A stretch of DNA of 64,000 nucleotides from contig CAZTFL010000001.1 of assembly GCA_964612895.1 (NCBI GenBank), positions 265,043 to 329,042 on the forward strand. The letters run 5' to 3'. Shown in pieces: positions 7,074-64,000 of this stretch. Source of the DNA: Candidatus Woesearchaeota archaeon (lineage in GTDB: Archaea > Nanobdellota > Nanobdellia > Pacearchaeales > GW2011-AR1). A program made the translations under genes and the position numbers. The notes beneath the pieces were generated by a model. That model was given only the letters and a program-made list of their open reading frames with translations. It had not been told where the DNA came from and made no database searches. The first letter of the stretch is position 1. Each line of letters opens with the position of its first letter.

Positions 7074-7328
7074 TAATCAATTCATCAAGTAAAGCATTTA
7101 TTTCTCTTAAATTATAAATAATCTGATCAAATAAATCTTCAAAATTATTTTCTTCCATAATTAATCAATATAAAAAAGAATATATAATAAATCGGAAACA
7201 AAAAGTGGATAATTTTTTGGATAAAAAAAGTCTCCGATTTCATTTATAAGGATATAATCTCATCACATCATGACAAAAAAATGTTATGTTTGTGGAGATT
7301 TTATTATTGAAGGAGAAATCTGTACTAC

Positions 7329-23765: not shown

Positions 23766-23766
23766 A

Positions 23767-46859: not shown

Positions 46860-48095
46860 TTATTTTTTTGTAATATATTTCCTTAGAACTAAGAACCATA
46901 GTATATTAACTAATACCAATATTCCTATTACTATTATTAAAATTGTTACAGTATCATTACTTCCTGATGAATTTGATGAACGTTTGTCCGCACTAATTAC
47001 ATATCCTAATCCTAAAACTTTTAATTCATTTGAACTAACTATTAACTCTAAATCATTGTCTATTTTTTTGTTTCCATATTCTAAACTTACTGTTGTATCG
47101 TAACTACCTTCTTTAACACCTGATGTATCCCAATATGAAGATAATATTTGTTTTCCTAATGGTTCTATATCATAATTTGGTGATTTTATACTATCTAATT
47201 TTTTCCCATCTTTACTGTAAATTTCCATAATACTATGAACTCCTATAATTGCTTCACTCCACTTATTTTCTAAAAGCATATTTACTTTTACTATTTCACC
47301 TAAAGAGAATTCGTTTACATATAATTCTTGAAGCTCTATATTTGCCTCTCCAACCGCAAATTCATCTTCTAAATTAATTATTTTGTCGTCGTATATCAAA
47401 GCAACTTTTGCTTTATAATTTCCTATAGGGACAGAAGCTTTCCATTTGTATATTATATCTTTTTTATCTCCTGATGCTATAAAATATTTTTCTGTAAATA
47501 AACTATCTATCTTTTCATTTAATGCACTATAAACATCTATATTTGCATATACGTCTGTTAGATCAAAGTCACCTTTTGAAGCCACTGAAATAATAAATGT
47601 TGCATCCCCATTTGAATCTGCGTTTATTACATTTAATTTTGCTTCGGCGTATTTTCCCGGATATGGGACATAAACATAAACTTGAGTTACTACTGCTAAA
47701 GTCGCTCCAATATAATTCTCTCCTTCTTCTAATTTTGGATTTTCCGTTATGACAATTTCCCCAACTTGAGTCCCTGGAGATAATTGCTCAGGAAGATTTA
47801 GAAAATATGATATTTTTACTTGACTATCTGAAGAACTCATAGATACACTGCTTTTTTCTAAATTTATATAATTCGCTAAATCTCCTCTTGCCGAAATTTT
47901 CAAATTCATATCTTTATTTTCGGAATTTACTATTGTGAATGAGTATGTGTTTGAAGATTTTCCTATATAATCAATTGTATTTCTTGCTGGAGTAACTCCC
48001 AGAGCAGATATTGATGATATAAAAAATATAAAAAAAACTAAAATCAATACATAATGACTGATTCCTGATAGATAATTTTTTACGATTGATTTCAT
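46860..48095 (-). CDS. Cell-surface protein with signal peptide and C-terminal TM anchor
   Basis: N-terminal VLILVFFIFFISSISALG. C-terminal TVTILIIVIGILVLVNILWFLVLRKY. It overlaps the upstream gene by 4 nt. Confidence 0.5.
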   Translation of the reverse strand: MKSIVKNYLSGISHYVLILVFFIFFISSISALGVTPARNTIDYIGKSSNTYSFTIVNSENKDMNLKISARGDLANYINLEKSSVSMSSSDSQVKISYFLNLPEQLSPGTQVGEIVITENPKLEEGENYIGATLAVVTQVYVYVPYPGKYAEAKLNVINADSNGDATFIISVASKGDFDLTDVYANIDVYSALNEKIDSLFTEKYFIASGDKKDIIYKWKASVPIGNYKAKVALIYDDKIINLEDEFAVGEANIELQELYVNEFSLGEIVKVNMLLENKWSEAIIGVHSIMEIYSKDGKKLDSIKSPNYDIEPLGKQILSSYWDTSGVKEGSYDTTVSLEYGNKKIDNDLELIVSSNELKVLGLGYVISADKRSSNSSGSNDTVTILIIVIGILVLVNILWFLVLRKYITKK

Positions 48096-48607
48096 TTTCC
48101 CTGTACTCCTATGTATTTACTTTGTTCTAATAATATTTTTTTATCTGGAGACAAACTTACATTTTCTATAAAATGACTTTCGTTATCGTAAACTTCAACA
48201 TTAAGAATTACACTTCCTGCATTTAGTACATTATAACCATTTTCTCCTTTTACTATATTTAATATAACAGAATCTTTTATCGTTAATGTTCTTATTTCAC
48301 TTTGTGTTATTCCTATAACTTTCCAGTAATATATATTTGGTTCTAATGAAAGTGAAAGATTTTTGTTTAAATCATATTCTTTAGGATTTGTAAAATTCAA
48401 ATCTGTATCAACTATTAATTTGTCTGCGTTTTTTATAGAGAATAAAATGTTTCCACCTAAAGATTCATAGTTATCAATTGGAGCTATTACTAATGGAGTA
48501 GAAATTCCTATAATCCACATTACAGCAAATAAACTCCCAAATATCAAAAAACTATCCATTATTTTAATCATCGGATTCTGACGTCGGACATCGGATTTTC
48601 TTATCAT
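48092..48607 (-). CDS. Hypothetical membrane/exported protein in the surface-protein operon
   Basis: 171 aa with N-terminal hydrophobic segment IFGSLFAVMWIIGISTPLVIA. It overlaps both neighbours by 4 nt. Confidence 0.4.
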   Translation of the reverse strand: MIRKSDVRRQNPMIKIMDSFLIFGSLFAVMWIIGISTPLVIAPIDNYESLGGNILFSIKNADKLIVDTDLNFTNPKEYDLNKNLSLSLEPNIYYWKVIGITQSEIRTLTIKDSVILNIVKGENGYNVLNAGSVILNVEVYDNESHFIENVSLSPDKKILLEQSKYIGVQGK

Positions 48608-51600
48608 GCTTCTGTCTCCGCAAATTTAGCTTCAAATACTACCGTAGAACTCTTTAATCCTGGACCTTCATTTGGCGGCACTTCTAAATGAATATCTATT
48701 TCGGCTGAATCATTATTATCGTGAAAATCAAGAGAATCAATTATAGTAACTCTTCCTGTTATACTCATATTTACCCAATTAAATAATGATGTTAACCATT
48801 TGAATGCTCCTTCTTCTCCTGTTCTATTATCTATTTTTGTTTTATAGTATTTTGATTCTGTTTGTTGACTTGTCCATATTGGTGTAGCATTTGTACTAAT
48901 GTTTATTTTTACATTTCCGTCATTTTGTATTACAAATGGTTGTGGATTTCCTGTTGATGTGTTTTTGCTTCCTAAGTATTCTATTGAACCAAAATTTATT
49001 TCACTATTTGTTAAACTTACTACAACATATGCATTTAACCTAAATGTGTTATAATTTGTCCATGGACCATATGTTTCTCCATCGTGCGCTCTAACTCTCC
49101 ATGTATAATAATATCCGTAATCTCCTAAACATTTCAAATCTTGAGTTGGTGTCCATTCATTATTATTTAAATTATTTCTTGATATATCGTCGTTACATAT
49201 TGCTGTTCCTGCACTTTTATGTTCCTCGATTTGTAATTCGTATGTTAGTGTATCTCCATCTAAATCTGTTCCTGTCCAATTAAATTCTGGTGTTCTGTTT
49301 GTTATATCTGAATTATTTGATGGTGAATTTAGGACGACTGTTGGTAAGTTATTTTTCAAACTAATTATATTTGATTCTAAACTCATTCCGTCTTCTACTA
49401 AATCATTTGGTGTTACTACAACTGACCAGTTTTCTAAGTCTACAGTTTCATAAGAAGATAAATTTTGCATCGAGTGATTATTTAATCCTGCAGTATATAT
49501 CATTTTAATTTGTTCTTCTGATAAGGAACGGTTGAAAATTAAAACTTCGTCGATTAGACCATCCCAAGGATAAGAGCCCCCTCCTGAATGTATTCCTATT
49601 TGAAAATTTTGATTAAATGTATATGATGTATAACTTTTTTGCATACTAAATGTTCCATTTACATATAATTTTGCCATTGTTCCATTCATAACTAAAGTTA
49701 TATGTGTCCAATTTGTTGTTGCGGATGTAACTGGAGAAGATCCCCAACCACTGTTCTGTATTCCCATATCCCAATATCCATTATAATGAGATAGATACAT
49801 TCTAGCATTTGCGTCAGGAGATTGTCCTAAAGACATAAACATTTTCGCTACACTTGGATTATCAGATTTCACCCACATAGAAAATGTTATTGGTTGAGTT
49901 GATGGATTCTTTCCAGCTCCATAAGGAATGTTAATATAATCATCTGTGCCGTCAAAATTATATGCTCCACCAACTTTTCCGTTAGTTGTCCATGTTGCTC
50001 CATAAACTGTTCCGTTATTCCCGTTTTTTGAATAATCTTTTGTCCACGATGATGTGCTGCCTCCTTCAAATGGCATATTTAAAACTGCTATACTATTATT
50101 GTTTACTCTCCAGTCTGTAATGTTGTAAACTGTGTCTTCTGGATCTGAATCGTGAGATTGTATTACTACAGACATATTTTCTGATGTTCTTATTCGTCCG
50201 TTTGTTGTATTTAATACGACTGAATCAACTACTGGTAAAATATTTACTCTTGACCATACTCTAGTTTCTGTTGAATTACAATTATTCGCCATATCACACG
50301 CTTTAGATGAATACCAGTGTTCTCCACGAGATAAATTCGTTATATTCATTGATAGTGACCAATCTGATTCTGAGAGTTTTTGTAAATTTGATTCGTATAA
50401 TAATTTAATTTCTGCGTCAGTTAAAGAACGATTGTATACACGAACTTCGTCCATGTGTCCGTTTAGATAATTTGCAATACTTCCACTTGCTCCAATTATT
50501 AAATCTTTATTATTATTCCAACTACTTGTTGATAGTGCACTTCCTCCTATCAAAATCCCGTCTACGTATAAATATCTTACATTGTTTCTAACAACTCCTA
50601 CTAGATGATGCCATTGATTAATGTCTGATGCCACTCTTGTTGCGTATGGAGAATTTGCTCCGTTCCAAGAGATAAACATAAAACCATTTTCTTCAAATCC
50701 GTATGCTAATCCTGCTCCTTTTAGCGTGCTGTCTCCTTTGTGTATTATTCCGTAACTTCCAACTGATTTTAGTTTTACCCAAGCAGAAACTGTAAAATTA
50801 TCTGATAAATCTAATGTTGGATTGTCGTAAACTCTAATATAATCATTTCCGTCGAAACTCATTCCTTTATTATGTTTCCCTGACTCATTATAGACTGCGC
50901 CTACGACTACTCCGTTATTTCCTGTTCCTGAAATATCTCTGACGAATGTATTATTTTCTTCTAAGCTTGTTAAGTTTTGGAAGTTCATAGCGAGAACTAA
51001 TCCGTTTCCTAAAGAACTGAAATTTGTATTATCTAATGTAAAATTTAAATCTCTCAAACTGTAATCTATTACTTCTACTTTTATATTCGTATAAGAATTT
51101 GGCGTTTGTGTTTCGTTTGTTGGTGTTGGTGATACGAATCTTATTTGTGGGGATCCACTATCTATATAAAATGGTCCTAATCTTGTAACATTTCCGGCAT
51201 TTCCGGCGCCATCCAATGCTTTAATATGGAAATAATTAACTCCTTCATTTAATGAACAGGTAAAATTTGTTTGTGTTGTATTTATAATATTATTTGGAAG
51301 TGATCTTTCCCAATCATCACATATAACTGAATACCCAGCAACACCTGTTGTTATTGATTGGTTTTTTATTTCGTATATTTTTACTGAATTTATTGTAATA
51401 TCTTTTGCAGAGCTTGAAGCAAAATCATCTAATAATATTTTTCTTAAGCCTTCTGTTGTTGGTGTGTAGGTAAATTCGTAAACTCCTGTTGCTGTAAAAT
51501 TTGGCGCTGTATTTTGCCAGGCTAACATTCCTGCATTAATTGTTAAGTTTAAGATTACTCTATATGGTTTATTTAGTTCCATTATATTTGTTGTTGAAAG

Positions 51601-54600
51601 CATATATGTATCAGAACCGCCTGCGCCATAGTATATTCTTGGTTTATTGTTTGCTCCAACTTCCCACTGTCCTGCGTTTGCTGTCCATCCCGACCATTTC
51701 GACGACATAGGATTTGTTGCTGTGTAATTTGAAAAATCTCCGTTATAAACTAAATTATCTTCATTTCCTTCTTTATCTTGAGTTCTAACATAGTAAAAAT
51801 AATCATCTCCTGTGTCTGTTGAGGCTGTCCAGTTAAAAATTGCTGAATTAAATGTGTAGAAACCGCCAACTGAAACGTTCGGAGATGATAAACTTGAAAC
51901 GTTTGAAGGAGATTTAATGTCTGAAGATGTGAATTCTAAATAATTTGATTTTGAGATATTTTCTCCGTTAACTGTTAATTTTAAATTATCAATTATCGTT
52001 GTGTATGTAGAATCTTGAGCATAATTTACTCCCATACTAAATTTTACAAACTTTGTACCATGCCAGAATTTATTATTATTAGTACTGTATAATGCTTCTC
52101 CTTTTATTGTACCACTTTTTTGCGTCCAAGAAAATGGAATTAAACTTCCAGAACTTGCTGTGTAAATATCTCCACCACTTGTGTGCATTCTTATTTTTGT
52201 TCCGGCAGAATATGTTTTTCCGACTGTAGTTCCGAATTCAATTTCACAATAATCTCCCATATTTTGAACTCTTGTAATATTTCCATTTCCTAAATCTCTA
52301 TTAGGTAAATCTGCATAGTTTCCTGAATCGTCTACGTTAAACGCTATACGACCATGATTTAATACATACCAATTGGTACAATTTTTTATTTTTACTATTT
52401 TATCTGTTGATTTTATATCTTCATATAATTCAGTATGTGTTCCACCCACAGTATTAACATTCGCAGCACCTATACTTTGTTTGTTTTGATCATAACCAAC
52501 AAATCCGAAATATAATCTACTTTGTCCACCTGTTCCATTTGATTTAAACATTCCGGACAATATATATTCAGAAGTATTATCCACTGGAATTAAATCTGTT
52601 GTATAAAGCCATTTATTTCCTATTTCATAAAATGCGTAATTTCCTTGATAAGAATCTGTAGTTACTCCGTCAAATCCGAAATTTGTTAGAGTTCCAAGTT
52701 CTGCATCTCCATTTATTATTGGTAAGTTTACGTCCAAATATTGTCCTGTTTGTGTTTCTGAACGATAAAGTTTATGTTTAATTAATCCGGATTGCATATC
52801 GTTTATAATTTCTTTTTGTGTAAGAGAACGATTGTATACACGAAGTTCGTCTAATTTTCCTTTAAACCATTGTCTTTGATTCCATGCACCTATTTGTGAA
52901 TATATTGGAATTGTTCTTAAAACACTAGAAGTATTTACTAAAACTCCATCTAAATACAATGTTTGTCTTGTAGAATTTTGAACTAATGAAAAATGATGCC
53001 AATTATTAAGAGTATAATAAGCACTTGCTCCTCCAGAATACATTACTAATCTACTTGTGCCACTCCAAATACTTTCAAATTCAAAACCTGAAGAAGGAGG
53101 CCTACTTCCTAATATAGTTCCCCATGATCCAGAAACATCAGTTCTATAAAACCAACCCGATAATGTATAAACAGATAGAGCTGTTGAAAGAGTTATATTA
53201 ATATAATCATCTGTTCCGTCGAAACTTAAAGCTCCACCATTACCTTCTTTTCCAGATGTCCAAGTTGGATTTCCATTCATTATTCCGTGATATTCATTCC
53301 CGCTCCAATCGTATGCTATTGTTCCGTTTCCTTCTTCAAATGGCATGTATAAAACTAATCCGTTGTCTTGTGCGTCTATTTTAACGTCTATTTTGTTTGT
53401 AGATGAATTTGCTATTGGTATTAACAATGGATTGATTGGTTTTGTTCTGTCGGCTGTTATGTTGTATGCAGTATTACTATAACCTGAATATGTTCCTCCT
53501 ATGAAACTTCTTATTTTATAAAAATATATTGAATTATCTAATAAGTTATCGTCTAAATATATTTCTGTGTTTTCTGATGTCGTGTTTATTTCATTGAATG
53601 TTGAATTGTCCGGACTTCTTTCTATAGAGAAACCGTCTTCTCCACTTGAACTATCTACCCAAGTTAAATTTAGAGCTCCTTTTCCGGAATTTAATACTTT
53701 ATCATTAATTACACTAACGTTTAAGCTGGATGGGGACATATCTATTGTCAGATTTCTTGTAGATGAGTTTGTATTTCCCGCTAAATCTTGAGAGTAAATT
53801 GTATAATTATAAAATCCGTTTCCGATATCTTGAAAATTGTTCCCGTATTGATTTGATTGCGCGTTATAAATTGATTTTATTTCTGAGTCGGATAAAGCAC
53901 GATTAAAAATCATAACGTCGTCAAGAGAGCCGTTGAGCCAATAATTTCCTCCGCCTAACCTTGCAGTTGCTATTGTTTGAGGAACATAATTTAAATTCCA
54001 AGTTCCAGTATTGTCTAAGACTCCATCTACATATATTTTTGTATTAGATGAAGGTTTTGTCCCATCAAATGTTACTGTAATATGATACCATTGCTTTGCG
54101 TTCCAGGTATTTTTTATACTATTTAACGTATAGTAAGTTCCTGCATTATCTTTAATTTCCCAATATAACTTATTAACACCTTTCTGGAAAGATAAAAAAT
54201 ATGCTCTTTGTGTATCAACATCCCTTTTCCCAATTAATTGAGGATATTCACTAACTTGTCCAGATGGAATTTGATTTAAATTTACCCATAAAGATATTGT
54301 TTCTGATGTTGTTGGATTAATAACGCTACTATTTCCTAAATTTATATAATCGTTTCCGCCAAATTCATACGCTAACCCTCTTTTCCCGCCGGTCACACTT
54401 GGACAAGATGCGCCTGAACATGTTCCATTATTTCCATATTTTGATGAATCAATAAATGTTATACCATCTGTTGTTTCTTCTAACTTCCACCATCCAACTA
54501 GTGAATTATTGAAATCTAAGAATGCTGAATGTTCTCCTGCGGCGTCGGACGATGTTGCGTTTATTGTAAAATAAGAATTTTGTAGCGTAGAATTACTTGC

Positions 54601-55137
54601 TGGTGTACTTCCACTAAAATATACGTTTGGTGTTACATTGTCTACATTAAAACTTACTGTGTCTTTTCCTATGTTGTTTGCCGAATCGTTACAATAAACG
54701 GCCCAGTTGTTTTTTCCTATTACGGTTTTTGAATATATATTTGTCCAGTTTGTTCCAGCGACAAGGGCTGTTGAGTTTGTTATTCCATTATCTTTACTAT
54801 ACCAACAATAAAGCGCTGTGGCATCTACTGTATAGTTCAAATTTCCTATGAGACTATAATATAAATTATCTCGAACTGGATAAGTTATCTGAACATTTGA
54901 GGATGTTGTATCTATTCCATAAAATAATCCTACAAAATTGTTAAAATTTAAAGATGAAATAACTCCTGATAAAATTCCTAAGGCTGTTTTTGATAAAAAA
55001 TTTGATGAGTTTGTTTGTGTTCCACCTGAAGAGACGACCGCAGCGTCTATATTATAGTTTGTACTATTAATTCCTGCACAAACAAACCCTATCCCAAATA
55101 GAAAAATAAAAATTCCTAGAACTAATTTATTTTCCAT
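48604..55137 (-). CDS. Giant secreted surface protein (2177 aa) with multiple LamG/ConA-like jelly-roll and Ig/FN3-like domains
   Basis: N-terminal signal VLGIFIFLFGIGFVCAG. There are at least four LamG terminal motifs: DDVMIFNRALSDSEIKSIY, DELRVYNRSLTQKEI, DEVRVYNRSLTDAEIKLLYE and DEVLIFNRSLSEEQIKMIY. Confidence 0.7.
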   Translation of the reverse strand: MENKLVLGIFIFLFGIGFVCAGINSTNYNIDAAVVSSGGTQTNSSNFLSKTALGILSGVISSLNFNNFVGLFYGIDTTSSNVQITYPVRDNLYYSLIGNLNYTVDATALYCWYSKDNGITNSTALVAGTNWTNIYSKTVIGKNNWAVYCNDSANNIGKDTVSFNVDNVTPNVYFSGSTPASNSTLQNSYFTINATSSDAAGEHSAFLDFNNSLVGWWKLEETTDGITFIDSSKYGNNGTCSGASCPSVTGGKRGLAYEFGGNDYINLGNSSVINPTTSETISLWVNLNQIPSGQVSEYPQLIGKRDVDTQRAYFLSFQKGVNKLYWEIKDNAGTYYTLNSIKNTWNAKQWYHITVTFDGTKPSSNTKIYVDGVLDNTGTWNLNYVPQTIATARLGGGNYWLNGSLDDVMIFNRALSDSEIKSIYNAQSNQYGNNFQDIGNGFYNYTIYSQDLAGNTNSSTRNLTIDMSPSSLNVSVINDKVLNSGKGALNLTWVDSSSGEDGFSIERSPDNSTFNEINTTSENTEIYLDDNLLDNSIYFYKIRSFIGGTYSGYSNTAYNITADRTKPINPLLIPIANSSTNKIDVKIDAQDNGLVLYMPFEEGNGTIAYDWSGNEYHGIMNGNPTWTSGKEGNGGALSFDGTDDYINITLSTALSVYTLSGWFYRTDVSGSWGTILGSRPPSSGFEFESIWSGTSRLVMYSGGASAYYTLNNWHHFSLVQNSTRQTLYLDGVLVNTSSVLRTIPIYSQIGAWNQRQWFKGKLDELRVYNRSLTQKEIINDMQSGLIKHKLYRSETQTGQYLDVNLPIINGDAELGTLTNFGFDGVTTDSYQGNYAFYEIGNKWLYTTDLIPVDNTSEYILSGMFKSNGTGGQSRLYFGFVGYDQNKQSIGAANVNTVGGTHTELYEDIKSTDKIVKIKNCTNWYVLNHGRIAFNVDDSGNYADLPNRDLGNGNITRVQNMGDYCEIEFGTTVGKTYSAGTKIRMHTSGGDIYTASSGSLIPFSWTQKSGTIKGEALYSTNNNKFWHGTKFVKFSMGVNYAQDSTYTTIIDNLKLTVNGENISKSNYLEFTSSDIKSPSNVSSLSSPNVSVGGFYTFNSAIFNWTASTDTGDDYFYYVRTQDKEGNEDNLVYNGDFSNYTATNPMSSKWSGWTANAGQWEVGANNKPRIYYGAGGSDTYMLSTTNIMELNKPYRVILNLTINAGMLAWQNTAPNFTATGVYEFTYTPTTEGLRKILLDDFASSSAKDITINSVKIYEIKNQSITTGVAGYSVICDDWERSLPNNIINTTQTNFTCSLNEGVNYFHIKALDGAGNAGNVTRLGPFYIDSGSPQIRFVSPTPTNETQTPNSYTNIKVEVIDYSLRDLNFTLDNTNFSSLGNGLVLAMNFQNLTSLEENNTFVRDISGTGNNGVVVGAVYNESGKHNKGMSFDGNDYIRVYDNPTLDLSDNFTVSAWVKLKSVGSYGIIHKGDSTLKGAGLAYGFEENGFMFISWNGANSPYATRVASDINQWHHLVGVVRNNVRYLYVDGILIGGSALSTSSWNNNKDLIIGASGSIANYLNGHMDEVRVYNRSLTDAEIKLLYESNLQKLSESDWSLSMNITNLSRGEHWYSSKACDMANNCNSTETRVWSRVNILPVVDSVVLNTTNGRIRTSENMSVVIQSHDSDPEDTVYNITDWRVNNNSIAVLNMPFEGGSTSSWTKDYSKNGNNGTVYGATWTTNGKVGGAYNFDGTDDYINIPYGAGKNPSTQPITFSMWVKSDNPSVAKMFMSLGQSPDANARMYLSHYNGYWDMGIQNSGWGSSPVTSATTNWTHITLVMNGTMAKLYVNGTFSMQKSYTSYTFNQNFQIGIHSGGGSYPWDGLIDEVLIFNRSLSEEQIKMIYTAGLNNHSMQNLSSYETVDLENWSVVVTPNDLVEDGMSLESNIISLKNNLPTVVLNSPSNNSDITNRTPEFNWTGTDLDGDTLTYELQIEEHKSAGTAICNDDISRNNLNNNEWTPTQDLKCLGDYGYYYTWRVRAHDGETYGPWTNYNTFRLNAYVVVSLTNSEINFGSIEYLGSKNTSTGNPQPFVIQNDGNVKINISTNATPIWTSQQTESKYYKTKIDNRTGEEGAFKWLTSLFNWVNMSITGRVTIIDSLDFHDNNDSAEIDIHLEVPPNEGPGLKSSTVVFEAKFAETEA

Positions 55138-55145
55138 AAAACTAA

Positions 55146-55397
55146 TTATTTAGACACATTTAGACATTCGATTGCAACTATTGTTAGAGTTTGATTTCCA
55201 CTCATTAACGGAACTGATTGACAACTGCCAGTCTGTTGCATTATCTGAGAGATTGCGTACTCATAACCTGCTTGATAGACTTGAACTTGTTCGTTATATC
55301 TAGCGGTTGTGTAAAAGCCATACCCTATATATCCTAAAGCAACAATCAACAAAACTCCTAAAATAATCGCAACAATCAAAGAAATATTTTTTTTCAT
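55146..55397 (-). CDS. Small pilin-like/anchor protein heading the surface operon
   Basis: 83 aa. KKNISLIVAIILGVLLIVALG is a single N-terminal hydrophobic helix after a basic stretch. There are two Cys in the C-terminal half. Confidence 0.4.
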   Translation of the reverse strand: MKKNISLIVAIILGVLLIVALGYIGYGFYTTARYNEQVQVYQAGYEYAISQIMQQTGSCQSVPLMSGNQTLTIVAIECLNVSK

Positions 55398-55494
55398 TTT
55401 ATAAACCTCCTTTTGATTTTTACCATCGTAATATTAAAAAAATCTAAGTTTATAAAAGCAACGGATTTTAGAAAAATACTGAAAAATTATTCTA

Positions 55495-56250
55495 TTAGAA
55501 ATGTTTTAAGATATTATTGAAATATTCAAAATCTCTTTTACTAACTTGTCCTAAAATTTTTAAATCAGGAGAAATAATCTTTCCTTCATCATTTATTGTC
55601 GCTGGATTTGTAGGTTCTGAAAATCGAACAAATTTCAAATTATCTAAAATTAAATCATATGTTCCTCCAAAATCTTGAGAGAAGTTATTTATGTCCATTT
55701 TTTGTGTTCTATATCCTATAGAAAACATTTTATCATTTGCTAGATTTATAATAGATCCTGCTTCTGCTTTTAATATTTCTAAAAAAATAGACGGATATTC
55801 ATCCTCTTTTGTGATTTCTCTTTTCACAAATTCAACAATATTATTATCTAATACAAAATACCAGACAAATTCTTTTCTATTAGTATTTGGATTTTTCTGA
55901 ATATCAGAATATGTTTCTATATTTTCTAATTTTGAATACATCGCAAAATTAGGATCTTCTAATTTTCTTGTTATTGATTTAGAACTTATTCCATATTTTT
56001 GGTTTAATAGTTCATATTCTTCATTAGATAAATCTTCATGAAAATGAGCTTGTTTTAGTTTTTGTTCTAATTTGCTTTGATATTTAGATGTTGTTTCTTT
56101 TTGTTGTTCTGCCACAATTGAAGTTCCTGAATAATTTTCTGTTGGTTGAACTTCTCTTGAACAAGAACTAAATAATAAAGGAATAGACAAAAGCCCAGCT
56201 GCTAATATATTTTTTAATGAGTATTTGTGATTTTTATAACCACTTTCCAT
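55495..56250 (-). CDS. Putative lipoprotein
   Basis: Signal peptide ends LLFSSCS (lipobox-like). 251 aa. Confidence 0.4.
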   Translation of the reverse strand: MESGYKNHKYSLKNILAAGLLSIPLLFSSCSREVQPTENYSGTSIVAEQQKETTSKYQSKLEQKLKQAHFHEDLSNEEYELLNQKYGISSKSITRKLEDPNFAMYSKLENIETYSDIQKNPNTNRKEFVWYFVLDNNIVEFVKREITKEDEYPSIFLEILKAEAGSIINLANDKMFSIGYRTQKMDINNFSQDFGGTYDLILDNLKFVRFSEPTNPATINDEGKIISPDLKILGQVSKRDFEYFNNILKHF

Positions 56251-56287
56251 GAATATCTATATAATTACTACTATATAAATGTAACTT

Positions 56288-57262
56288 TTATAATATAAAA
56301 TAATGCCCATATGAAAATTTCAGATCATAATTTAAACCCTTTAATCCTATTTTTATTTGTTCAATATTGGAACATCCTATTTTGGTATTTCCATATAAAT
56401 TAATTATATTCACGGCTATTTGCTCTCCTTTCAAATCAGAATTACATATTTTACTGGCTTTTTCACAGTTAGGTTCTGTACATTCGCAATATCTTTTTAT
56501 GTTTTCTATTAAACATTTATTCTTAGAATTAATTAAATATTCTGATAATATTTGTGAAAAAGATTCTCCTTCTTCTAATTTTACTTCCGAATAGCCCTTT
56601 GATGCTTCAAGCTCAATACTACCATATGAATAACATGCATCTTGCATTGTTACTAAACTATAACTTCTACCTGTTGGAATCTGTTTATTTATTTTTGTAA
56701 ATGAATCGCTACAAGCTTTTTTCCTTATGTTTGTTGTATTATATTTTGATGCATCTGCTATTTCTGATTTAATTTCTTTTATTCGAAGATTAGTCTCGTC
56801 AAAACTGATATCGAATGAAGAACCTAAATCAAGTGGAGCTGATGTAAAATCTTTTATTGGATATTTTAAATCTTTACAATATTTTATATTACAGGTTATA
56901 GAATTCTCATCGTCTTCATATACTGGACATACACAAATTGTGTTTTTTGGAGATTTTTTTAAAAAGAAATTATATAAGTCAAAACTCTCGCAATCTTGAT
57001 AATTAGTTTCAAAATATACTAAAAAATATCTTGTAGGTGAATAATCCCTATATACCAAATAGTTATCTTTTCCATTTTTTTCTGCAAGTGATATTGATTC
57101 TTCTAAATATTCAAAGAAACCTTTTGCAATTTCGTCTTCTTTATTGTATTTTCCTATGAGACTTACTAATAATATTATTAGAATAAAAACACTTGCTGCG
57201 GCAAGAATAATTTCAGGCATACTTTCAGAAAGTAAAGTTGAACCTCTTTTGTTTGATTTCAT
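56288..57262 (-). CDS. Cys-rich exported protein with class-III-like N-terminal signal
   Basis: The N-terminus NKRGSTLLSESMPEIILAAASVFILIILLV has KRG followed by a small residue and a hydrophobic helix. There are more than 15 Cys in the mature part. Confidence 0.4.
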   Translation of the reverse strand: MKSNKRGSTLLSESMPEIILAAASVFILIILLVSLIGKYNKEDEIAKGFFEYLEESISLAEKNGKDNYLVYRDYSPTRYFLVYFETNYQDCESFDLYNFFLKKSPKNTICVCPVYEDDENSITCNIKYCKDLKYPIKDFTSAPLDLGSSFDISFDETNLRIKEIKSEIADASKYNTTNIRKKACSDSFTKINKQIPTGRSYSLVTMQDACYSYGSIELEASKGYSEVKLEEGESFSQILSEYLINSKNKCLIENIKRYCECTEPNCEKASKICNSDLKGEQIAVNIINLYGNTKIGCSNIEQIKIGLKGLNYDLKFSYGHYFIL

Positions 57263-57303
57263 GAATTTATAAATCTTATTTAATTAATAAAAGTTATGGG
57301 AAC

Positions 57304-58110
57304 TTATGCCCAACTCTTACTGATTTTTTCTTTCCAAAAAGATGGTAATGGAATGTCAATAAATCCTTGAAACTTATTAGAATATACGTAAGTTAGTCCT
57401 TTTATTTCATTATACTTCTCAAAATCTTCTTGTATTTTTTTATATATTTCTTGAATTATTTTTCTTTCAAAATCTTTTTGTAATAATGAGGATTTTTTTA
57501 ATATCAAAAAATCTGCTTGTCTTAAAATATTAACTTCTAAATTTGAAGAATTTTGTGATACAAATAATATACTTATGTCTTTATGTCTTGCAATCATAAT
57601 TAATTCGCTTAGTAATCTATTAGCGTTTGTCATGGACTTTCTTGAATTAAATAAAATTCCACCTTCATCTATTAAAACAAAAGACTTATTTGTTATTTGA
57701 GCAATATCAGATATCGAATTTATCCATTCTGGTAATTCTTCCTCGTTAAAACCTATTGCAAAAATTTTTTTATTTGATTTTGAATGAATATTTTCTAATA
57801 ACTTCAAACCGAAAGCACTTTTCCCAGAGCCCCTTGAACCTAGAACTATCCCAATCTGACTATCTGATTTTAGTAAATTATTAAACAAATCTAAATATTT
57901 TCCTTTCTCTGATTTAATTATTTTGACTTCTTCATATTTTGATTCAATCAGGATTCTTTTATGTTTTTGATTTATTTTTTTAATTTTTTGTTTAGATTCT
58001 TTAAATAATGAAATGCAAAATTTAATCAATATGAATGGTAATTTAAGTAATAATAAAATTATTTTAAATAAATTATATAAAACATTTTTCTTCTTTTTGT
58101 TCTTTTTCAT
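57304..58110 (-). CDS. Membrane-anchored P-loop NTPase
   Basis: N-terminal TM. Walker A is VLGSRGSGKSAFGLKL. Walker B-like is FVLIDEGG. Confidence 0.5.
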   Translation of the reverse strand: MKKNKKKKNVLYNLFKIILLLLKLPFILIKFCISLFKESKQKIKKINQKHKRILIESKYEEVKIIKSEKGKYLDLFNNLLKSDSQIGIVLGSRGSGKSAFGLKLLENIHSKSNKKIFAIGFNEEELPEWINSISDIAQITNKSFVLIDEGGILFNSRKSMTNANRLLSELIMIARHKDISILFVSQNSSNLEVNILRQADFLILKKSSLLQKDFERKIIQEIYKKIQEDFEKYNEIKGLTYVYSNKFQGFIDIPLPSFWKEKISKSWA

Positions 58111-58134
58111 ATTATATAGAAATAAATCTTGTTT

Positions 58135-59046
58135 TTATTTTCTTGCTTTAACTAAATCTGTGACTAATTTTGACATTTCTCCTAAAAAGGCGTCAGACAT
58201 TACAAAAAGTTCATCTAACATTTTTCCTTCTATACTTGTTTTTACTCCATGAACTATATCTTTAGCTATTGTATGAATGATATCATAATATTTAACATAT
58301 TTTTTATCTAATAATTTGTTTTTTACAAAATTATCTTCTAATACTTTTGAAATATCCTCTGGAGAAGCGGGCATTATATCTGCAGAAATTAAAGCTGCGT
58401 GTGCTGCATCAACCATTCCCCAATAAATACCATCAACTACAGCCAACATTAATCCTTTTGCTCTTGTAAAATGAGTTGGAGCCCTTTCTAATAATGTATA
58501 AATTGATTCTGGGGTTGCCCTAATTTTCCCTTCTTTTAATAATAGCCTTAATGGTGCAAAGAAACCTCCGAAATCTATCAGTGGTTCTCCACTTCTTAAT
58601 ATATTTAATACTATTGGATCACCTCTTAGTAAATCGTTCCACCATGTAGATAACTTAACAGAACTTATGTGTAATGGTTTTTGATATTTATTTTGTTCTA
58701 ATATTATCGCAAGTCTTTTTCTATACCATGCAATTAATTCTTCATCAAATTTTATAGAAATATCATCAATTAATATAATTACATCTATATCTGATTGTTG
58801 AGTAGAATCTTTTTTAACACTTGAACCAAACAAAACTATAGATTTAATCATTGTATCAAATTCTTTATAGATTTTTGTTGCGAAATCCATCGCAATTTCT
58901 TGTTCTGTTGCTAACAACATTGTGTTTTTAACTGTCTGAATTCTTTTCATTAGTTGACTCTTATTCTTTGGTGGAATAGAATAATCTTCTTTTTTATTAT
59001 TTTTAGAACTATTATTAGATTTTTTTGCCATAATCACTCTCTTCAT
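58135..59046 (-). CDS. Polbeta-superfamily nucleotidyltransferase with C-terminal helical (possibly HEPN-like) domain
   Basis: LFGSSVKKDSTQQSDIDVIILID matches the minimal NTase signature GS-x(n)-DxD. The C-terminal ~150 aa is helical and includes ERAPTHFTRAKG. Confidence 0.55.
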   Translation of the reverse strand: MKRVIMAKKSNNSSKNNKKEDYSIPPKNKSQLMKRIQTVKNTMLLATEQEIAMDFATKIYKEFDTMIKSIVLFGSSVKKDSTQQSDIDVIILIDDISIKFDEELIAWYRKRLAIILEQNKYQKPLHISSVKLSTWWNDLLRGDPIVLNILRSGEPLIDFGGFFAPLRLLLKEGKIRATPESIYTLLERAPTHFTRAKGLMLAVVDGIYWGMVDAAHAALISADIMPASPEDISKVLEDNFVKNKLLDKKYVKYYDIIHTIAKDIVHGVKTSIEGKMLDELFVMSDAFLGEMSKLVTDLVKARK

Positions 59047-59374: not shown

Positions 59375-60190
59375 TTATTTATAACATTTATCCAATATTG
59401 TATCAAAAGAACTATTTATTTTTCCTGCCATAAATTCATAAAATTCTTGTTCTCCTTTGGATAGTCCAGTATTGTCCTGTGCTCTATTATTATTATAACC
59501 ATCTACAGCATTTTCCAGATGAGTATAGTAATCAAATCTTTCTCCTGATTTTATTATTGGCATTGGAATTTTGTAATGATTTAAAATTATATTTTGTAAT
59601 GTTCTTGCGGTCCTACCATTCCCATCAACAAATGGATGTATTCTTGCTATTTGAAAATGGGCAAATGCTGAAGCAATTATTACATCAACTGGATCAATTG
59701 GATTAGCATTTTCTATTTTACTAAATTGTTTATTTAAAGAACAAACGAAACTTGGAATTTCATAATTTGAAATTTTTTCATAATTTGGCATCACTTTACA
59801 ACCATTTTTACCATTTAATCTAGCAGAAACTGTTCTATATTTTGCTATAGAATTATCATATATTTCTGGTGAAATCATTCCTGCTATTTCTCGAACAAAT
59901 GATTCTTCAAAATTTTTTGGATTAAAATTTTTTATTCCCCATAATCTTGCATTATTAATAGATTTTATACCATTTCTTGTTGTTTTTTTTCTTGTACTTC
60001 TTGATACTGATGGAAATTCATTGTAAACATTGGGATTTTCTATTTTGTATGATTCATATTCGGCATCTTCTATAATTCTTTTCATTTGATTTTTTTCACA
60101 TTGAAAATAAAAATTATCATTTTCTATAGAATTTAGTATTCTATATTTATTTCTTAATTCAGAAGATAATTGCCTAGAAACGCATTCCAT
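59375..60190 (-). CDS. Fic/Doc-family protein (AMPylase-type)
   Basis: Canonical Fic motif HPFVDGNGRTARTL. Confidence 0.8.
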   Translation of the reverse strand: MECVSRQLSSELRNKYRILNSIENDNFYFQCEKNQMKRIIEDAEYESYKIENPNVYNEFPSVSRSTRKKTTRNGIKSINNARLWGIKNFNPKNFEESFVREIAGMISPEIYDNSIAKYRTVSARLNGKNGCKVMPNYEKISNYEIPSFVCSLNKQFSKIENANPIDPVDVIIASAFAHFQIARIHPFVDGNGRTARTLQNIILNHYKIPMPIIKSGERFDYYTHLENAVDGYNNNRAQDNTGLSKGEQEFYEFMAGKINSSFDTILDKCYK

Positions 60191-61078: not shown

Positions 61079-61384
61079 ATGGGAATGATATCAGAATTTA
61101 TGGAATTTTTGAAGGAATATAAGGTAGTTGCTTTAGCAGTTGCTTTTATAATGGGTGTTGCCGCTACATCATTAATTCAATCATTAGTTAGTAATATAAT
61201 TATGCCAATAATAACCCCTATGATTCCTGGTGGAGCTTGGAAAACAGCAACACTTGTTTTAGGTCCAATAGTTATAGGATGGGGATCATTTTTAGGTGAA
61301 TTAATAAATTTTATAATTGTGGCATTTGTAGTTTTTGTGATTGCAAAAAAAGTAATGAAAGAAGAAAAGGTTACTAAAAAATAA
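61079..61384 (+). CDS. mscL: Large-conductance mechanosensitive channel MscL
   Basis: EFMEFLKEYKVVALAVAFIMGVAATSLIQSLVSNIIMP aligns with the MscL N-terminus/TM1, which is conserved as ([38 protein letters not shown]). TM2 is FIIVAFVVFVIAKKV. Confidence 0.75.
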   Translation: MGMISEFMEFLKEYKVVALAVAFIMGVAATSLIQSLVSNIIMPIITPMIPGGAWKTATLVLGPIVIGWGSFLGELINFIIVAFVVFVIAKKVMKEEKVTKK

Positions 61385-61524
61385 TTTGTTTTTTAATTTT
61401 TATAAAATGTCTATTTATTGTATTTAACATCGGGGTTTAAGGGAAGTTTATAATAGGATTTTGAGCGAAGCGTCCTTTGAATTTTTGAATTGCATATAAT
61501 GTTCACAGAACTAAGAGGGAAATT

Positions 61525-62268
61525 TTACTTGTATATATTTATCGTTTTAGATTTTCTATAAGGTTTTTGTGCAGAATTTTGGAGATGTATTTTTGTCAAA
61601 GATTCAGCAATAGAATGACAACCTGTACAAACCACAATTAAATTATTCTTATTATTATTTGATGGATTTTTATCTATGTGATGAATGTGTAATTGTCTTT
61701 TATTTTCTCCACATAACTGACAAGCATTGTCTGCCCTATTAAATAATTCTTTTTGAACATTATTCTTTATTGGAACTCTAACTTTTCTATTTAATTCTTT
61801 TTCGTCATCAAATCCTAAATCTATTGAACTTCCTTTTTTCTTTATGTATTGAGGTTTTGGTGCTTCTCCTAACCACTGGCCTTCCTCTTCTTTCCATTCT
61901 TTATCAGAACCATATTTACATTTTTTACAAATATAATAATGTCTGTCATACTTTATATCTCTCATTATTGTTTTTTGACTCCCAGGGTCATTTTCAGTTG
62001 TTCCATCAGAATATTTGTAAACTTTGGAATGATATGTATATGGTTCTTTCTTTATTCCTAAATCTTCTTTCCATTCAATATGTTCTTTTTTAAAAAAAGG
62101 TCTTTTACAATGAGGACATCTTGTGTCCCAAATAAAATAAGTTAATCCACAAAAAATGAAAGCAATTATAATGGAGGTAGTCATTAGATTTGAAGAAACG
62201 TTACTTCCAACAATAGAATAAATAACTAAACCAATCCAAATAAGACTAACAAACACGGTATAATACAA
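61525..62268 (-). CDS. Membrane-anchored zinc-ribbon plus HNH endonuclease-domain protein
   Basis: Two N-terminal TM helices. The middle has CPHCKRPFF and CKKCKYG. The C-terminal HNH motif is CQLCGENKRQLHIHHIDKNPSNNNKNNLIVVCTGCH. Confidence 0.6.
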   Translation of the reverse strand: MYYTVFVSLIWIGLVIYSIVGSNVSSNLMTTSIIIAFIFCGLTYFIWDTRCPHCKRPFFKKEHIEWKEDLGIKKEPYTYHSKVYKYSDGTTENDPGSQKTIMRDIKYDRHYYICKKCKYGSDKEWKEEEGQWLGEAPKPQYIKKKGSSIDLGFDDEKELNRKVRVPIKNNVQKELFNRADNACQLCGENKRQLHIHHIDKNPSNNNKNNLIVVCTGCHSIAESLTKIHLQNSAQKPYRKSKTINIYK

Positions 62269-62379
62269 TGGATCTTTGTAAAATGGAAGTGGTTCTGTAT
62301 TATTTATTATATAAATATTATAATTATTAATATTAAATACTTTTCTGTTTTGATTTAAGACGCCCCTTCATATTATTTT

Positions 62380-62660
62380 TTTCCGCAGAAAAAGGCACTC
62401 TGTCCGTAGGACTCGGAATCCCCCCTCGTTCGTTTCGTTTTTAGAAAATTACCCCCTTCGTTAGCCCCTGAAATTATTGAATAGAACATCGGAATTTAAC
62501 GAAGTCGTGAGTGTAGCGAACGATTTGGGTGGAGAAACCTGCAAGGTTTCGGAACCGTTAAATTCCTGTTAGTTTCCCCTGAATACTTGGAAGGGTTGAT
62601 TTTTAGTGCAACGATGCCGAAGGCAAAAACTCAAAGTTGCAAATTCTCGTTTATCAATTT
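62380..62660. ncRNA. Candidate structured non-coding RNA of unknown class: a GC-rich, hairpin-dense, non-coding stretch
   Basis: Local GC is far above the window background. Perfect hairpins include gatggt-ggga-accatc, ggaa-ccgttaaa-ttcc and aacc-tgca-aggtt. There is long-range cgttcg/cgaacg complementarity. A repeated gttag(n)cccctgaa motif occurs twice. No ORF lies in it. Identity and strand are unresolved. Confidence 0.2.
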
Positions 62661-62661
62661 A

Positions 62662-62674
62662 AGAGGGCACTTCA
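62662..62674. repeat. Left terminal inverted repeat (agagggcacttca), paired with 63584-63596
   Basis: Perfect 13-bp reverse-complement match to tgaagtgccctct at 63584-63596, read directly from the sequence. Confidence 0.8.
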
Positions 62675-62724
62675 GGATGGTGGGAACCATCAGTTTGTAG
62701 AATTAGGAGTTTGTCGCTGTTTTA

Positions 62725-63474
62725 TTATTGAGTCCTTGTTTTATCAATTACTTGGAGTTCTTGTTCTAGCATTGGATGACCAACACCAAAATAAAGTCTT
62801 CCACCTTGCAAAACTTCTGTTGCTCCAACTAGCAAATTCTGAGTTTTCTCAAATAATTCATAATTAAATGGAACATCAGTTTCTAGAACTCTTGGAAGAT
62901 TGTTTCCAGAGCGAGGTCGAGCAATATCAAAAATATAAGTTTTTGAGGTTGGATCTCTGACTACAATAAAAGAATGATTGCCTAAATCTGCTGAAGGAGA
63001 TTGTGCCTCAACTCCGCTCATATAAGAAGCAGAGTATCCATCTTGTAGAACATTTTGAAGTAGATATTGACCTAAAGAAGCTTGTTCTGCACACATTGCA
63101 ACACCCTTTAAATCAGTTAGTTTCGCTTTTTCATCATGGAATTTAGCTTTTCTTTCTAAATCGCTTGGAGGACTTTCAGGTTTTACATCCATTACTGTTT
63201 GAACTTTTCTTTGAACTGTATTTGCAACAAAGAAAAGATAAGGGTCAACTTTTGAACCTACTTGAGACAACCAATCTGTTACTGATTGTCTATGTTGCTC
63301 GTAAGCTTCTGAAATTTTTTGTGGAGAATGATAGTTATCTAATTCTCCATTGAAACTATCAAAATCTAGGGCAATTTTGGTTGTAAGCTCATCGCTAAAT
63401 ATAGAACCTCCAACAGGCAATTCTTGTCCTCTTTCTAGTCTATCTGCCCAAATACCCCTATATATCTTTTTCAT
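62725..63474 (-). CDS. Hypothetical protein with atypical composition, possibly a transglutaminase/papain-like Cys-His fold
   Basis: 249-aa ORF. It is much less Lys/Asn/Ile-rich and more GC-rich than all other genes here. GVAMCAEQASLGQYLL followed by GNHSFIVVRD loosely resembles Cys ... His-Asp transglutaminase-like cores. Confidence 0.35.
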   Translation of the reverse strand: MKKIYRGIWADRLERGQELPVGGSIFSDELTTKIALDFDSFNGELDNYHSPQKISEAYEQHRQSVTDWLSQVGSKVDPYLFFVANTVQRKVQTVMDVKPESPPSDLERKAKFHDEKAKLTDLKGVAMCAEQASLGQYLLQNVLQDGYSASYMSGVEAQSPSADLGNHSFIVVRDPTSKTYIFDIARPRSGNNLPRVLETDVPFNYELFEKTQNLLVGATEVLQGGRLYFGVGHPMLEQELQVIDKTRTQ

Positions 63475-63583
63475 ACTATTATAGTGTAAGAGCTGGTTTT
63501 AAATGTTTCGTTTTGTTACTACTATCAGGTGTCTAATTAACAAGGCGACAAGCTCCATTTTAGGGGCGGGTGGTCGGGGGAAT

Positions 63584-63596
63584 TGAAGTGCCCTCT
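63584..63596. repeat. Right terminal inverted repeat (tgaagtgccctct), paired with 62662-62674
   Basis: See left repeat. Confidence 0.8.
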
Positions 63597-63740
63597 CCTA
63601 TCTTTTAACTCAAAATTTAGAGAATTTGCAATTGAAACTAACATAGATTAAACGAACTTTTATTCTGAGGACATTTCGTTTAATCTTCCTATTTATCCTA
63701 AAAAGAGAATAAATCTTTTATTTTATCTATACAAAATTCT

Positions 63741-64000
63741 ATTATGAGTTATACATTACCTATTGATACTTTTATTTCAAAACTGCAAGAAAGAATTAAA
63801 CTAAGAGAATTTAGTGAACAAACTAAGAAAAGTTATTGCTATCATGTTAAGGATTTTCTATTATTTTTAGATAAAAGTAGACTTAATCTGAACGAAGAAG
63901 GAATTAAGTCATATCTACTTTCTCTTAATTTATCAAATAATTCTGTTCGTCTAAAAATTATGGCTATTAAATTTTTCTTCTTGGAAGTGCTAAAAAGTCC
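63741..64000 (+). CDS. XerC/XerD-like tyrosine recombinase, N-terminal SAM-like domain only (truncated by the window end)
   Basis: Own translation: MSYTLPIDTFISKLQERIKLREFSEQTKKSYCYHVKDFLLFLDKSRLNLNEEGIKSYLLSL. This matches the N-terminal core-binding domain pattern of Xer/phage integrases. No stop before 64000. Confidence 0.5.
   Translation, partial: MMSYTLPIDTFISKLQERIKLREFSEQTKKSYCYHVKDFLLFLDKSRLNLNEEGIKSYLLSLNLSNNSVRLKIMAIKFFFLEVLKS

Follow-up and report, generated by a model that had tools for sequence, protein, structure and literature searches.

We analyzed a 64,000-nt stretch of contig CAZTFL010000001.1 (hereafter, the window) from a Candidatus Woesearchaeota archaeon, one of the DPANN archaea, and in particular a gene near its end whose predicted product combines two transmembrane (TM) helices, a zinc ribbon and an HNH nuclease domain. 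As judged from its junctions and the sites around it, this HNH gene is the second cassette of a two-cassette array beside a divergent tyrosine recombinase. The gene and two features that an initial annotation had listed separately, an 'inverted-repeat cassette' and a 'Xer gene', together read as an integron-like platform, which we regard as the main fact about the locus. The inverted repeat is real, although it is actually the attC of the neighboring cassette (62476..62581). Likewise, the tyrosine recombinase starting at 63744 on the plus strand had been noticed, but not recognized as the divergent integrase of a cassette array.

The evidence that the gene is a cassette comes from related loci (given here as L numbers, and their proteins as P numbers). 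A protein identical to P0001 (87% identity to the window protein) is encoded at no fewer than six loci that differ in gene context (L001–L006): after an integrase gene, after an acetyltransferase gene, between two flavodoxin-like genes, or before a Fic gene, an ABC transporter gene or unknown genes. Alignment of the six loci delimits an identical DNA block that starts right after ...GATG|TTAAAT and ends at ...TTAATCGCGATG|TTA(A/G/T)(A/G/T)T. Because these junctions match the G|TT crossover of the integron core GTTRRRY, the gene is identified as a cassette. The block ends in an attC hairpin composed of R'' ATTTAAC, A, L'' GCGATTAAGAG, a variable loop, L' CTCTTAATCGC, GAT and R' GTTAAAT, with a folding energy of –35.3 kcal/mol (z = –10.8); another attC of these arrays folds with –24.6 kcal/mol (z = –8.3). 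Other cassettes in the arrays display the same attC layout, with L-boxes that differ in sequence yet are complementary.

We built an attC covariance model from seven sites of these arrays. The model found untrained sites after an HNH_5-variant gene in L013, a metagenome-assembled genome (MAG) of Nanoarchaeota (67.9 bits), after the P0005 gene in L009 (30.6 bits, with mutated R boxes) and, as a third case, in L001. Both the L013 and L009 genes have the same leader and 3' untranslated region (UTR) as the P0001 cassette. The HNH gene is an integron-type cassette, and copies of it that are identical or nearly so circulate in DPANN populations and occupy different positions in their arrays. With a strict pattern scan, no attC turned up near the genes for P0010, P0009, P0013 and P0020, and the covariance model added only L009 and L013; the deeper members of the family are thus not demonstrably cassettes.

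In the window, the boundaries of the HNH cassette follow the junction logic of the identical cassettes of L001–L006 and are marked by GATGTT sites at 62490 and 61431 (Table 1). The region of its own attC forms no stable fold (–3.5 kcal/mol, z = +0.9), and neither the covariance model nor the pattern scan found a functional attC on this cassette. Because the attC has collapsed and the ancestral ATG start codon is ATA, the window copy appears to be immobilized. It is probably a cassette by descent, fixed beside the chromosomal gene mscL, whose adjacency had been pointed out correctly. The attC of the upstream cassette is intact; it folds with –16.1 kcal/mol (z = –2.7) and scores 81.9 bits with the covariance model, although this site belonged to the training set. 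The open reading frame (ORF) of this upstream cassette (cassette 1) had no match in Pfam, NCBIfam, PADLOC or PHROGs, and the GC content of this cassette (34–43%, compared with about 25% in the flanking DNA and the genome) suggests that the cassette was captured recently from a different organism. The candidate attI has a fold z of –3.2 and a weak covariance-model match (24 bits, E = 0.045). The recombinase fragment matches the NCBIfam models XerA_Arch and integron integrase (E = 4e-6) and is 30% identical to the complete integrase of L001. A search of Rfam yielded nothing between 61380 and 63760 even at E = 1, and two tRNAs only in the whole window.

Table 1. Features of the integron-like region of the window (residue numbers refer to the 260-aa form of the protein)
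Feature	Position	Strand	Description	Basis
mscL	61079-61384		MscL	confirmed
Decayed attC of HNH cassette	61422..61497	(-)	5' extension, R''-like TATAAAC and R' core GTTAAAT kept; L''-loop-L' hairpin deleted	comparison with intact attCs
Whole HNH cassette	61428..62486	(-)	starts at the T that follows G|TT crossover in the upstream attC, ends with G of its own ...CCCCGATG|TTAAAT	
2TM / zinc-ribbon / HNH gene	61525..62307	(-)	260 codons from ATA 62307, or 247 from TTG 62268	ORF, conserved N-terminal peptide, homologues, dN/dS
HNH (beta-beta-alpha-Me) domain	61573..61779	(-)	residues 177-245; C196xxC199, H210 (predicted general base), N222, C227xxC230-H231	
Flexible linker	61780..61827	(-)	residues 161-176	pLDDT <50 at 163-174; variable and gapped in alignment
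Zinc-ribbon beta domain	61828..62121	(-)	residues 63-160; knuckles C64xxC67, C127xxC130; pI 9.2	
TM helix 2	62122..62193	(-)	residues 39-62	AlphaFold2 helix, pLDDT ~90; hydropathy peak 46-51
TM helix 1	62209..62271	(-)	residues 13-33	AlphaFold2 helix, pLDDT ~90; hydropathy peak 22-29
Intact attC of upstream cassette	62476..62581	(-)	R'' AACTAAC, A, L'' GGAATTTAACG ... L' CGTTAAATTCC, GAT, R' GTTCTAT	pattern scan
Cassette 1	62487..63641	(-)	ORF 62725-63474, 249 aa; attI junction ATG|TTAGTT	
Candidate attI	63629..63702	(.)	12-bp inverted repeat AGATTAAACGAA/TTCGTTTAATCT beside core GTTAGTT, ~100 nt from integrase start	
N-terminus of divergent tyrosine recombinase	63744..64000	(+)	cut by window end	translation and NCBIfam models

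The integrase gene is adjacent and divergent in L001, L003 and the window, and lies directly beside the cassette in L001. The complete L001 integrase (7074-7826 (-), 250 aa) and Pyrococcus XerA (4a8e) can be aligned over their full length without a break (140.8 bits). Against VchIntIA (IntI4; 2a3v), the alignment splits in two, and residues 158–179 of the query cover residues 179–247 of the chain. The region of the IntI-specific insert accordingly measures about 21 residues, compared with about 68 in VchIntIA, and about 47 are skipped. The protein scores below both NCBIfam cut-offs (XerA, 182.7 against 220; integron integrase, 169.8 against 265). Judging from the L001 copy, the recombinase of these arrays looks XerA-like rather than IntI-like and appears to lack the IntI-specific domain.

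Several further regularities were observed in these arrays. Every attC of the lineage (L001–L006, L009 and L013; e.g. L001 8852-8892) carries CTCAAGGGGACGC, a variable hairpin and CACCCTCA directly before R'', and only one bulge, of 2 nt, lies between its R and L stems, in place of an unpaired central spacer bubble. Inside the cassette, an 18–20-nt inverted repeat brackets the ORF (L001 7945-7964 and 8778-8795; the same in L002–L006 and L013). It consists of CTAAAAGAGGGGGATTTTAC in the leader and of GTAAAATCCCCCTCTTAG overlapping the stop codon, which is followed by a conserved GTTC-TTCG-GAAC hairpin; in the window, the repeat is weaker (about 62430-62455 and 61507-61527). This repeat could reflect long-range pairing between the 5' and 3' parts of the mRNA, or could be the trace of an earlier insertion. 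In L014 (Pacearchaeota MAG PFDB01000017.1), an HNH_5-variant cassette lies between two copies of a different repeat of about 100 nt (3830-3925 and 4880-4985), which ends in ...GCTCAGGTCGTCTAACACTGATTA and is invisible to the attC model; the sequence there is broken by a run of N. The same cassette may therefore be handled in L014 by a second class of recombination site. The leader of the window HNH cassette (62345-62486 (-)) is GC-rich and unrelated to that of the P0001 cassette. It is 77% similar to DNA just past the last attC of L005 (3401-3467 and 7690-7745 (-)), ends in GAAGGGGCGTC and has no Rfam match. Two small hairpins in it (GTCC-loop-GGAC, and CTTTTAC/GTAAAAG compared with TTTTTC/GAAAAA) show apparently compensatory changes, and the leader may be a structured RNA or DNA element, or the remnant of another recombination site.

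The ORF of 247 aa from TTG, reported for positions 61525..62268 on the minus strand, is present, and the HNH string quoted for it (CQLCGENKRQLHIHHIDKNPSNNNKNNLIVVCTGCH) occurs in the translation. However, homologues start 13 residues further upstream than this TTG, with the N-terminal peptide MNNTEPLPFYKEP. The same peptide is encoded in frame in the window from 62307, where the first codon is ATA instead of the ATG of the homologues and is preceded by TAA. The product would be either 260 aa from the non-canonical ATA or 247 aa from the TTG, and the true start is uncertain. In L011, a Woesearchaeota MAG, an in-frame TAG interrupts the conserved N-terminal peptide (2167-2202; ..KLPF*KNL), and a restart codon ATG is located exactly at the position of the window's TTG. 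By this comparison, L011 is an independent loss of the same 13 residues by a different route; since the restart falls at the same position, the short form of 247 aa is probably viable.

A search of 5.8 billion proteins yielded 36 full-length homologues of about 260 aa. In a codon-level comparison with the closest homologue, dS was 0.44 and dN was 0.068 (dN/dS = 0.155). Because of these homologues and this ratio, the gene is not a chance ORF, and by the same measure the ORF as a whole is under purifying selection. The ratio differed by region and was 0.07 in the zinc ribbon, 0.12 in the HNH part and 0.36 in the TM region.

The predicted domain architecture agrees with the initial annotation, which had described two N-terminal TM helices, two CxxC zinc-ribbon knuckles and a complete HNH motif. 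Kyte-Doolittle means over 19 residues exceeded 1.6, the usual threshold for TM helices, solely around residues 22–29 and 46–51. An AlphaFold2 model computed from a 33-sequence alignment (mean predicted local distance difference test score (pLDDT), 81.7) contains helices at both places (13–33 and 39–62), followed by an all-beta domain (73–157), a disordered segment (163–174) and the HNH unit. In the last of these, strands 206–210 and 223–227 and helix 228–236 form the beta-beta-alpha arrangement that the HNH superfamily requires. All four zinc-ribbon cysteines (C64, C67, C127 and C130) are invariant in the 33 homologues, as are C196, C199, H210, N222 and C227 of the HNH domain, including the catalytic His and Asn; C230 is nearly so (at least 90% of sequences). 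Neither of the two findings named beforehand as refuting the initial annotation, a lack of TM helices or substitution of the catalytic His or Asn in homologues, was made. Position 231, the metal-ligand position after the second CxxC pair, is H in the window type and N in the HNH_5-type variants. The zinc-ribbon domain is the best conserved part of the protein, and both soluble domains are basic (pI 9.2 for the zinc ribbon and 9.8 for the HNH domain). The zinc-ribbon domain is predicted to sit directly against the membrane, with a flexible tether of about 15 residues connecting it to the HNH domain.

The Pfam scores of the window protein fall below the gathering scores (HNH_3, 19.3 against 24.8; HNH, 16.7 against 21.4), whereas relatives exceed them (P0038, HNH 28.8; P0051, HNH_5 44.5). 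Profiles of other collections gave significant matches to the HNH domain: PHROGs HNH profiles (3.4e-10, with phage HNH endonucleases as the best matches) and the ZorE HNH models of PADLOC (2.9e-7 to 4e-8), while its SAVED-HNH models match the variant P0017. The NCBIfam IscB model also matches the HNH core, and the family profile searched against the Protein Data Bank (PDB) matches the HNH domain of IscB (1e-8), a group II intron maturase (1.8e-8) and McrA (1e-3). Because of the motifs and these profile matches, we assign the domain to the HNH superfamily. By its residues, it is a standard HNH core with catalytic residues intact and a predicted nuclease. In contrast to the HNH core, the module formed by the two TM helices (2TM) and the zinc ribbon has no Pfam family match and no fold neighbor in the PDB, and the 2TM hairpin, zinc ribbon and HNH combination has, beyond the HNH core, no family in Pfam, NCBIfam, PADLOC or PHROGs. 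The SLATT 2TM model gave a single weak match, to relative P0017 (E = 0.042, 13.3 bits against a cut-off of 60).

The charges around the TM helices indicate which side of the membrane the HNH domain faces. In members of the family, a short loop with almost no charge connects the two helices (mean K+R, 0.4), and the 15 residues after TM helix 2 are strongly basic (mean K+R, 4.9). Stand-alone relatives that possess a third TM helix, at the N-terminus, have a basic first loop and a basic flank after the TM region, in contrast to their N-terminus and second loop. When the positive-inside rule is applied to this charge pattern, the cytoplasmic side is predicted for the N-terminus and for both soluble domains, the zinc ribbon and the HNH domain. 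The two Cys4 zinc sites also suit a cytoplasmic protein better.

Among 185,579 species genomes, all nine matches to the family were DPANN MAGs (Nanoarchaeota/Nanobdellota, Pacearchaeota, Woesearchaeota and Micrarchaeota), and no relative was found in the 2.9 million viral contigs of IMG/VR. The family is a mosaic; on backbones that hardly differ, HNH domains of four types and zinc ribbons of two types replace one another. For example, P0016 and P0001 are 97% identical in the TM region and 99% in the zinc ribbon, but only 18% in the HNH part, where P0016 has an HNH_5-type domain; conversely, P0018 and P0029 are 96–97% identical in the HNH domain and 32–39% in the zinc ribbon. When the N-terminal module alone was used as a profile, it matched 75 clusters among 1.84 billion representatives, and many of these are proteins of 140–210 aa with just two or three TM helices and the zinc ribbon. 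This makes the membrane/zinc-ribbon module the core of the family and the HNH domain an exchangeable extra part. Two further relatives deviate from this layout. P0043 (260 aa) carries a cysteine-rich, zinc-finger-like C-terminus in place of the HNH domain, and P0059 (268 aa) has an extra N-terminal domain, whose only PDB match is T7 endonuclease I (E = 0.17). They suggest further swapping of effectors on the same membrane module. We did not count P0059 as a second nuclease fusion, given this E value and a catalytic Lys that is missing in the alignment.

The initial annotation had called for a look at the conservation of the neighborhood. No neighbor gene of the HNH-fused form was conserved across the contexts examined, which argues that this form acts alone, and the gene occurs in the varied cassette contexts described above. 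Individual loci nevertheless place relatives near genes of conflict systems. P0013 (Micrarchaeota) is encoded between a Cas4-like PD-(D/E)xK gene and an AbiO/Nhi-like gene; the P0064 and P0115 genes adjoin DUF2779, Endonuc_Holl, NmeDI_C, MzaB-like and SNF2 genes; and the P0116 gene lies in an integrase-bearing element. At one locus, within a defense island, the stand-alone module relative P0111 is encoded 2 nt upstream of an AriA/OLD-like ATPase (PADLOC, 5.9e-24, covering the whole AriA model). The arrays or islands also contain weak ParE matches, a faint YoeB match and Fic genes. In unrelated loci, a Fic-domain gene repeatedly lies within a few kilobases of the HNH cassette or of a relative (window 59375-60190 (-), L002 2896-4038, L004 1300-2442 and L022 10303-11175).

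The likeliest reading, which we propose tentatively, is a single-gene conflict or defense nuclease acting at the membrane, a role deduced from indirect signs. A tether to the inner face of the membrane would confine the nuclease to nucleic acid arriving at or crossing the membrane, and the targets might be virus genomes, plasmids or DNA from contact between host and symbiont. The basic zinc-ribbon domain would be a binding or sensing module; alternatively, the zinc-ribbon/TM module might gate the nuclease for an abortive response. The exchange of whole HNH and zinc-ribbon modules between near-identical genes would reflect an arms race. Of the roles first suggested for the protein, defense or conflict gains indirect support, because the gene is a mobile cassette with shuffled modules and has relatives beside AriA/OLD-like, AbiO/Nhi-like and Cas4-like genes. 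Toxin-antitoxin and restriction functions are over-represented in archaeal cassettes (PMC9668308), and bacterial integron cassettes of unknown function are often small defense systems, about one-third of them with TM helices (bioRxiv 10.1101/2024.07.02.601719). These findings make a defense role plausible without proving it. More doubtful is the wider claim that the protein would be the first single-gene, membrane-tethered nuclease defense, distinguishing self from non-self by location through an undescribed 2TM/zinc-ribbon sensor, and that it would be spread among DPANN archaea by a platform with a XerA-like recombinase free of the IntI domain.

Several observations weigh against a defense role. 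The similarities in PADLOC and NCBIfam are generic to the HNH domain and far below every family cut-off; the defense-island contexts come from a handful of loci, and P0010, P0009 and P0020 are encoded among housekeeping genes with neither a defense neighbor nor a conserved partner. The topology rests on the positive-inside rule and the AlphaFold2 prediction. Moreover, nothing explains how a tethered and otherwise unregulated nuclease spares the chromosome of a very small cell, the hosts are uncultivated, and the window copy may be decaying (ATA start, attC lost).

This last point leads to the possibility, which we consider improbable but which would be compatible with the other explanations, that the gene persists in this genome as a decaying and no longer functional remnant of a cassette that once was mobile. 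The ATA in place of the ancestral ATG, the deleted attC hairpin and the faster evolution of the TM region (dN/dS = 0.36) would fit a relic. However, a frame of 260 codons remains intact in a genome with 25% GC, dN/dS is 0.07–0.12 in both soluble domains, and the TTG at codon 14 can serve as a start, with the parallel loss in L011 suggesting that the short form works. Similarly unlikely is a self-toxic addiction or toxin gene whose effect is to stabilize the cassette array or its own persistence; the same holds for a polymorphic toxin whose C-terminal nuclease can be exchanged. Among the annotated cassettes of archaeal integrons, those for toxin-antitoxin systems form the largest class (PMC9668308), the weak ParE and faint YoeB matches and the Fic genes mentioned above would fit, and a C-terminal nuclease swapped on a constant N-terminal part recalls polymorphic toxins and nuclease colicins. 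In this family, however, the zinc-ribbon module is swapped as well, which a simple toxin-tip model does not predict. The cassette contains one ORF, and its 215-nt 3' part is taken up by attC and UTR, which leaves no room for an antitoxin or immunity gene; neither a secretion or delivery domain nor a neighbor conserved across contexts was found. A toxin role, which may apply nonetheless, had also been suggested at the outset.

Competence or DNA uptake, the remaining role initially suggested, is disfavored by the inside charge pattern. An outward-facing nuclease that scavenges DNA to feed a nucleotide-auxotrophic DPANN cell, or that processes DNA for uptake, is accordingly even less likely in our estimation. 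There are precedents for it, since EndA is a membrane-attached nuclease for DNA entry (PMC3025545) and membrane nucleases of mycoplasmas provide nucleotide precursors to parasites with reduced genomes (PMC12115388), and every named carrier of the family is a DPANN archaeon. However, the charges (K+R 4.9 compared with 0.4) place the zinc ribbon and HNH domain inside, the relatives with three TM helices agree, and there is no signal peptide. The Cys4 sites also fit the cytoplasm better, as noted, and the gene is sporadic and cassette-borne rather than core. Least probable by far is a homing endonuclease, or selfish HNH gene, spreading by cutting empty sites. It is true that free-standing HNH genes are a common type of mobile element, that phage enzymes lead the PHROGs matches and that an identical gene occupies many contexts, but recombination of attC at G|TT fully accounts for this mobility and a membrane anchor is hard to reconcile with homing; we found no intron or intein context, and the viral contigs contained no relative. 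On these grounds, we rejected both the homing-endonuclease and the secreted-toxin explanations, the former because of the attC-explained mobility and the membrane anchor, and the latter for want of a delivery domain and an immunity gene.

Elsewhere in the window, a long block (46860-59046 (-)) contains an ORF of 2177 aa together with several that match no family, and also encodes a Zot-like P-loop ATPase and a nucleotidyltransferase. A giant Laminin_G_3 protein, a TraG/HerA-like ATPase and a type I restriction-modification system are also encoded (2728-5304, 9862-12771 and 19536-26655). Much of the window may be accessory or integrated-element DNA.

DPANN archaea are uncultivated symbionts with reduced genomes, whose accessory genes are mostly unannotated, and the locus provides a testable candidate for the handling of foreign DNA, encoded as a small protein by a single gene, which makes it easy to obtain by synthesis and to assay. 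The membrane/zinc-ribbon module is new, and is combined with at least four HNH types, found alone, and once found beside an OLD/AriA-like ATPase. Among known proteins, IscB/Cas9, the En domain of group II intron maturases and McrA resemble the window protein in about 60 HNH residues only; they have neither a membrane anchor nor this zinc-ribbon beta domain, and family-specific scores are far below the cut-offs. The likeness to ZorE of Zorya II (the best PADLOC match), PtuB of Septu and Cap5 of CBASS is likewise limited to the HNH core. NCBIfam ZorE scores 19–21 bits against a cut-off of 600, and none of the partner genes (ZorA/B, PtuA or cyclase/SAVED) was present in the cassette or in any context examined. 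To two-gene PARIS AriA/OLD systems, the likeness is the single locus where P0111 stands beside an AriA-like ATPase, whereas the window protein lacks such a partner and has its own nuclease. Features of polymorphic toxins and nuclease bacteriocins are absent from the cassette, which has a single ORF, a 3' part of UTR and attC, and no conserved downstream gene.

EndA of Streptococcus pneumoniae also has a beta-beta-alpha-metal active site. It shares with the window protein the N-terminal membrane anchoring of a nuclease, but is surface-exposed, has a single anchor and acts in competence (PMC3025545), whereas the window protein is predicted to be cytoplasmic, with a two-helix hairpin and an extra zinc ribbon. 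EndA and the surface nucleases of mycoplasmas were all that a literature search for TM-HNH or membrane-anchored HNH proteins returned. BRiCs, small phage-defense systems carried by integron cassettes of bacteria, resemble the present case as single small cassette proteins of previously unknown function with TM helices and a proposed action at the membrane or on DNA entry (bioRxiv 10.1101/2024.07.02.601719); they are bacterial and experimentally tested, whereas the window protein is archaeal and known from its sequence, and the term 'HNH' is absent from the text of that paper. The HNH domain and the integron-type vehicle are both of known kinds, whereas for the combination of 2TM hairpin, zinc ribbon and HNH domain we found no published description.

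Integrons of archaea were reported in 2022, with attCs also in Nanoarchaeota; the integrases found numbered only six, all of them reported to carry the IntI-specific domain (PMC9668308). The present arrays share with integron cassettes, including the archaeal ones (Ghaly et al. 2022, PMC9668308), one ORF with a downstream attC, the R''/L''/L'/R' layout, the GTTRRRY core with G|TT crossover, the same cassette at different array positions, and a divergent tyrosine recombinase with an adjacent attI. Their attCs differ from those of known integrons by a conserved 5' extension, AAGGGGACGC-hairpin-CCCTCA, and by the 2-nt R/L bulge, and the attC of the window HNH cassette is decayed. The recombinase differs as well, since the L001 integrase aligns end to end with XerA and skips about 47 residues of VchIntIA at the place of the IntI-specific insert, which the published archaeal IntIs are reported to have. 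Live cassette shuffling is seen in these archaeal arrays and is apparently served by a short XerA-like recombinase; if this enzyme indeed works on these attCs, the accepted need for an IntI-specific domain would have to be qualified.

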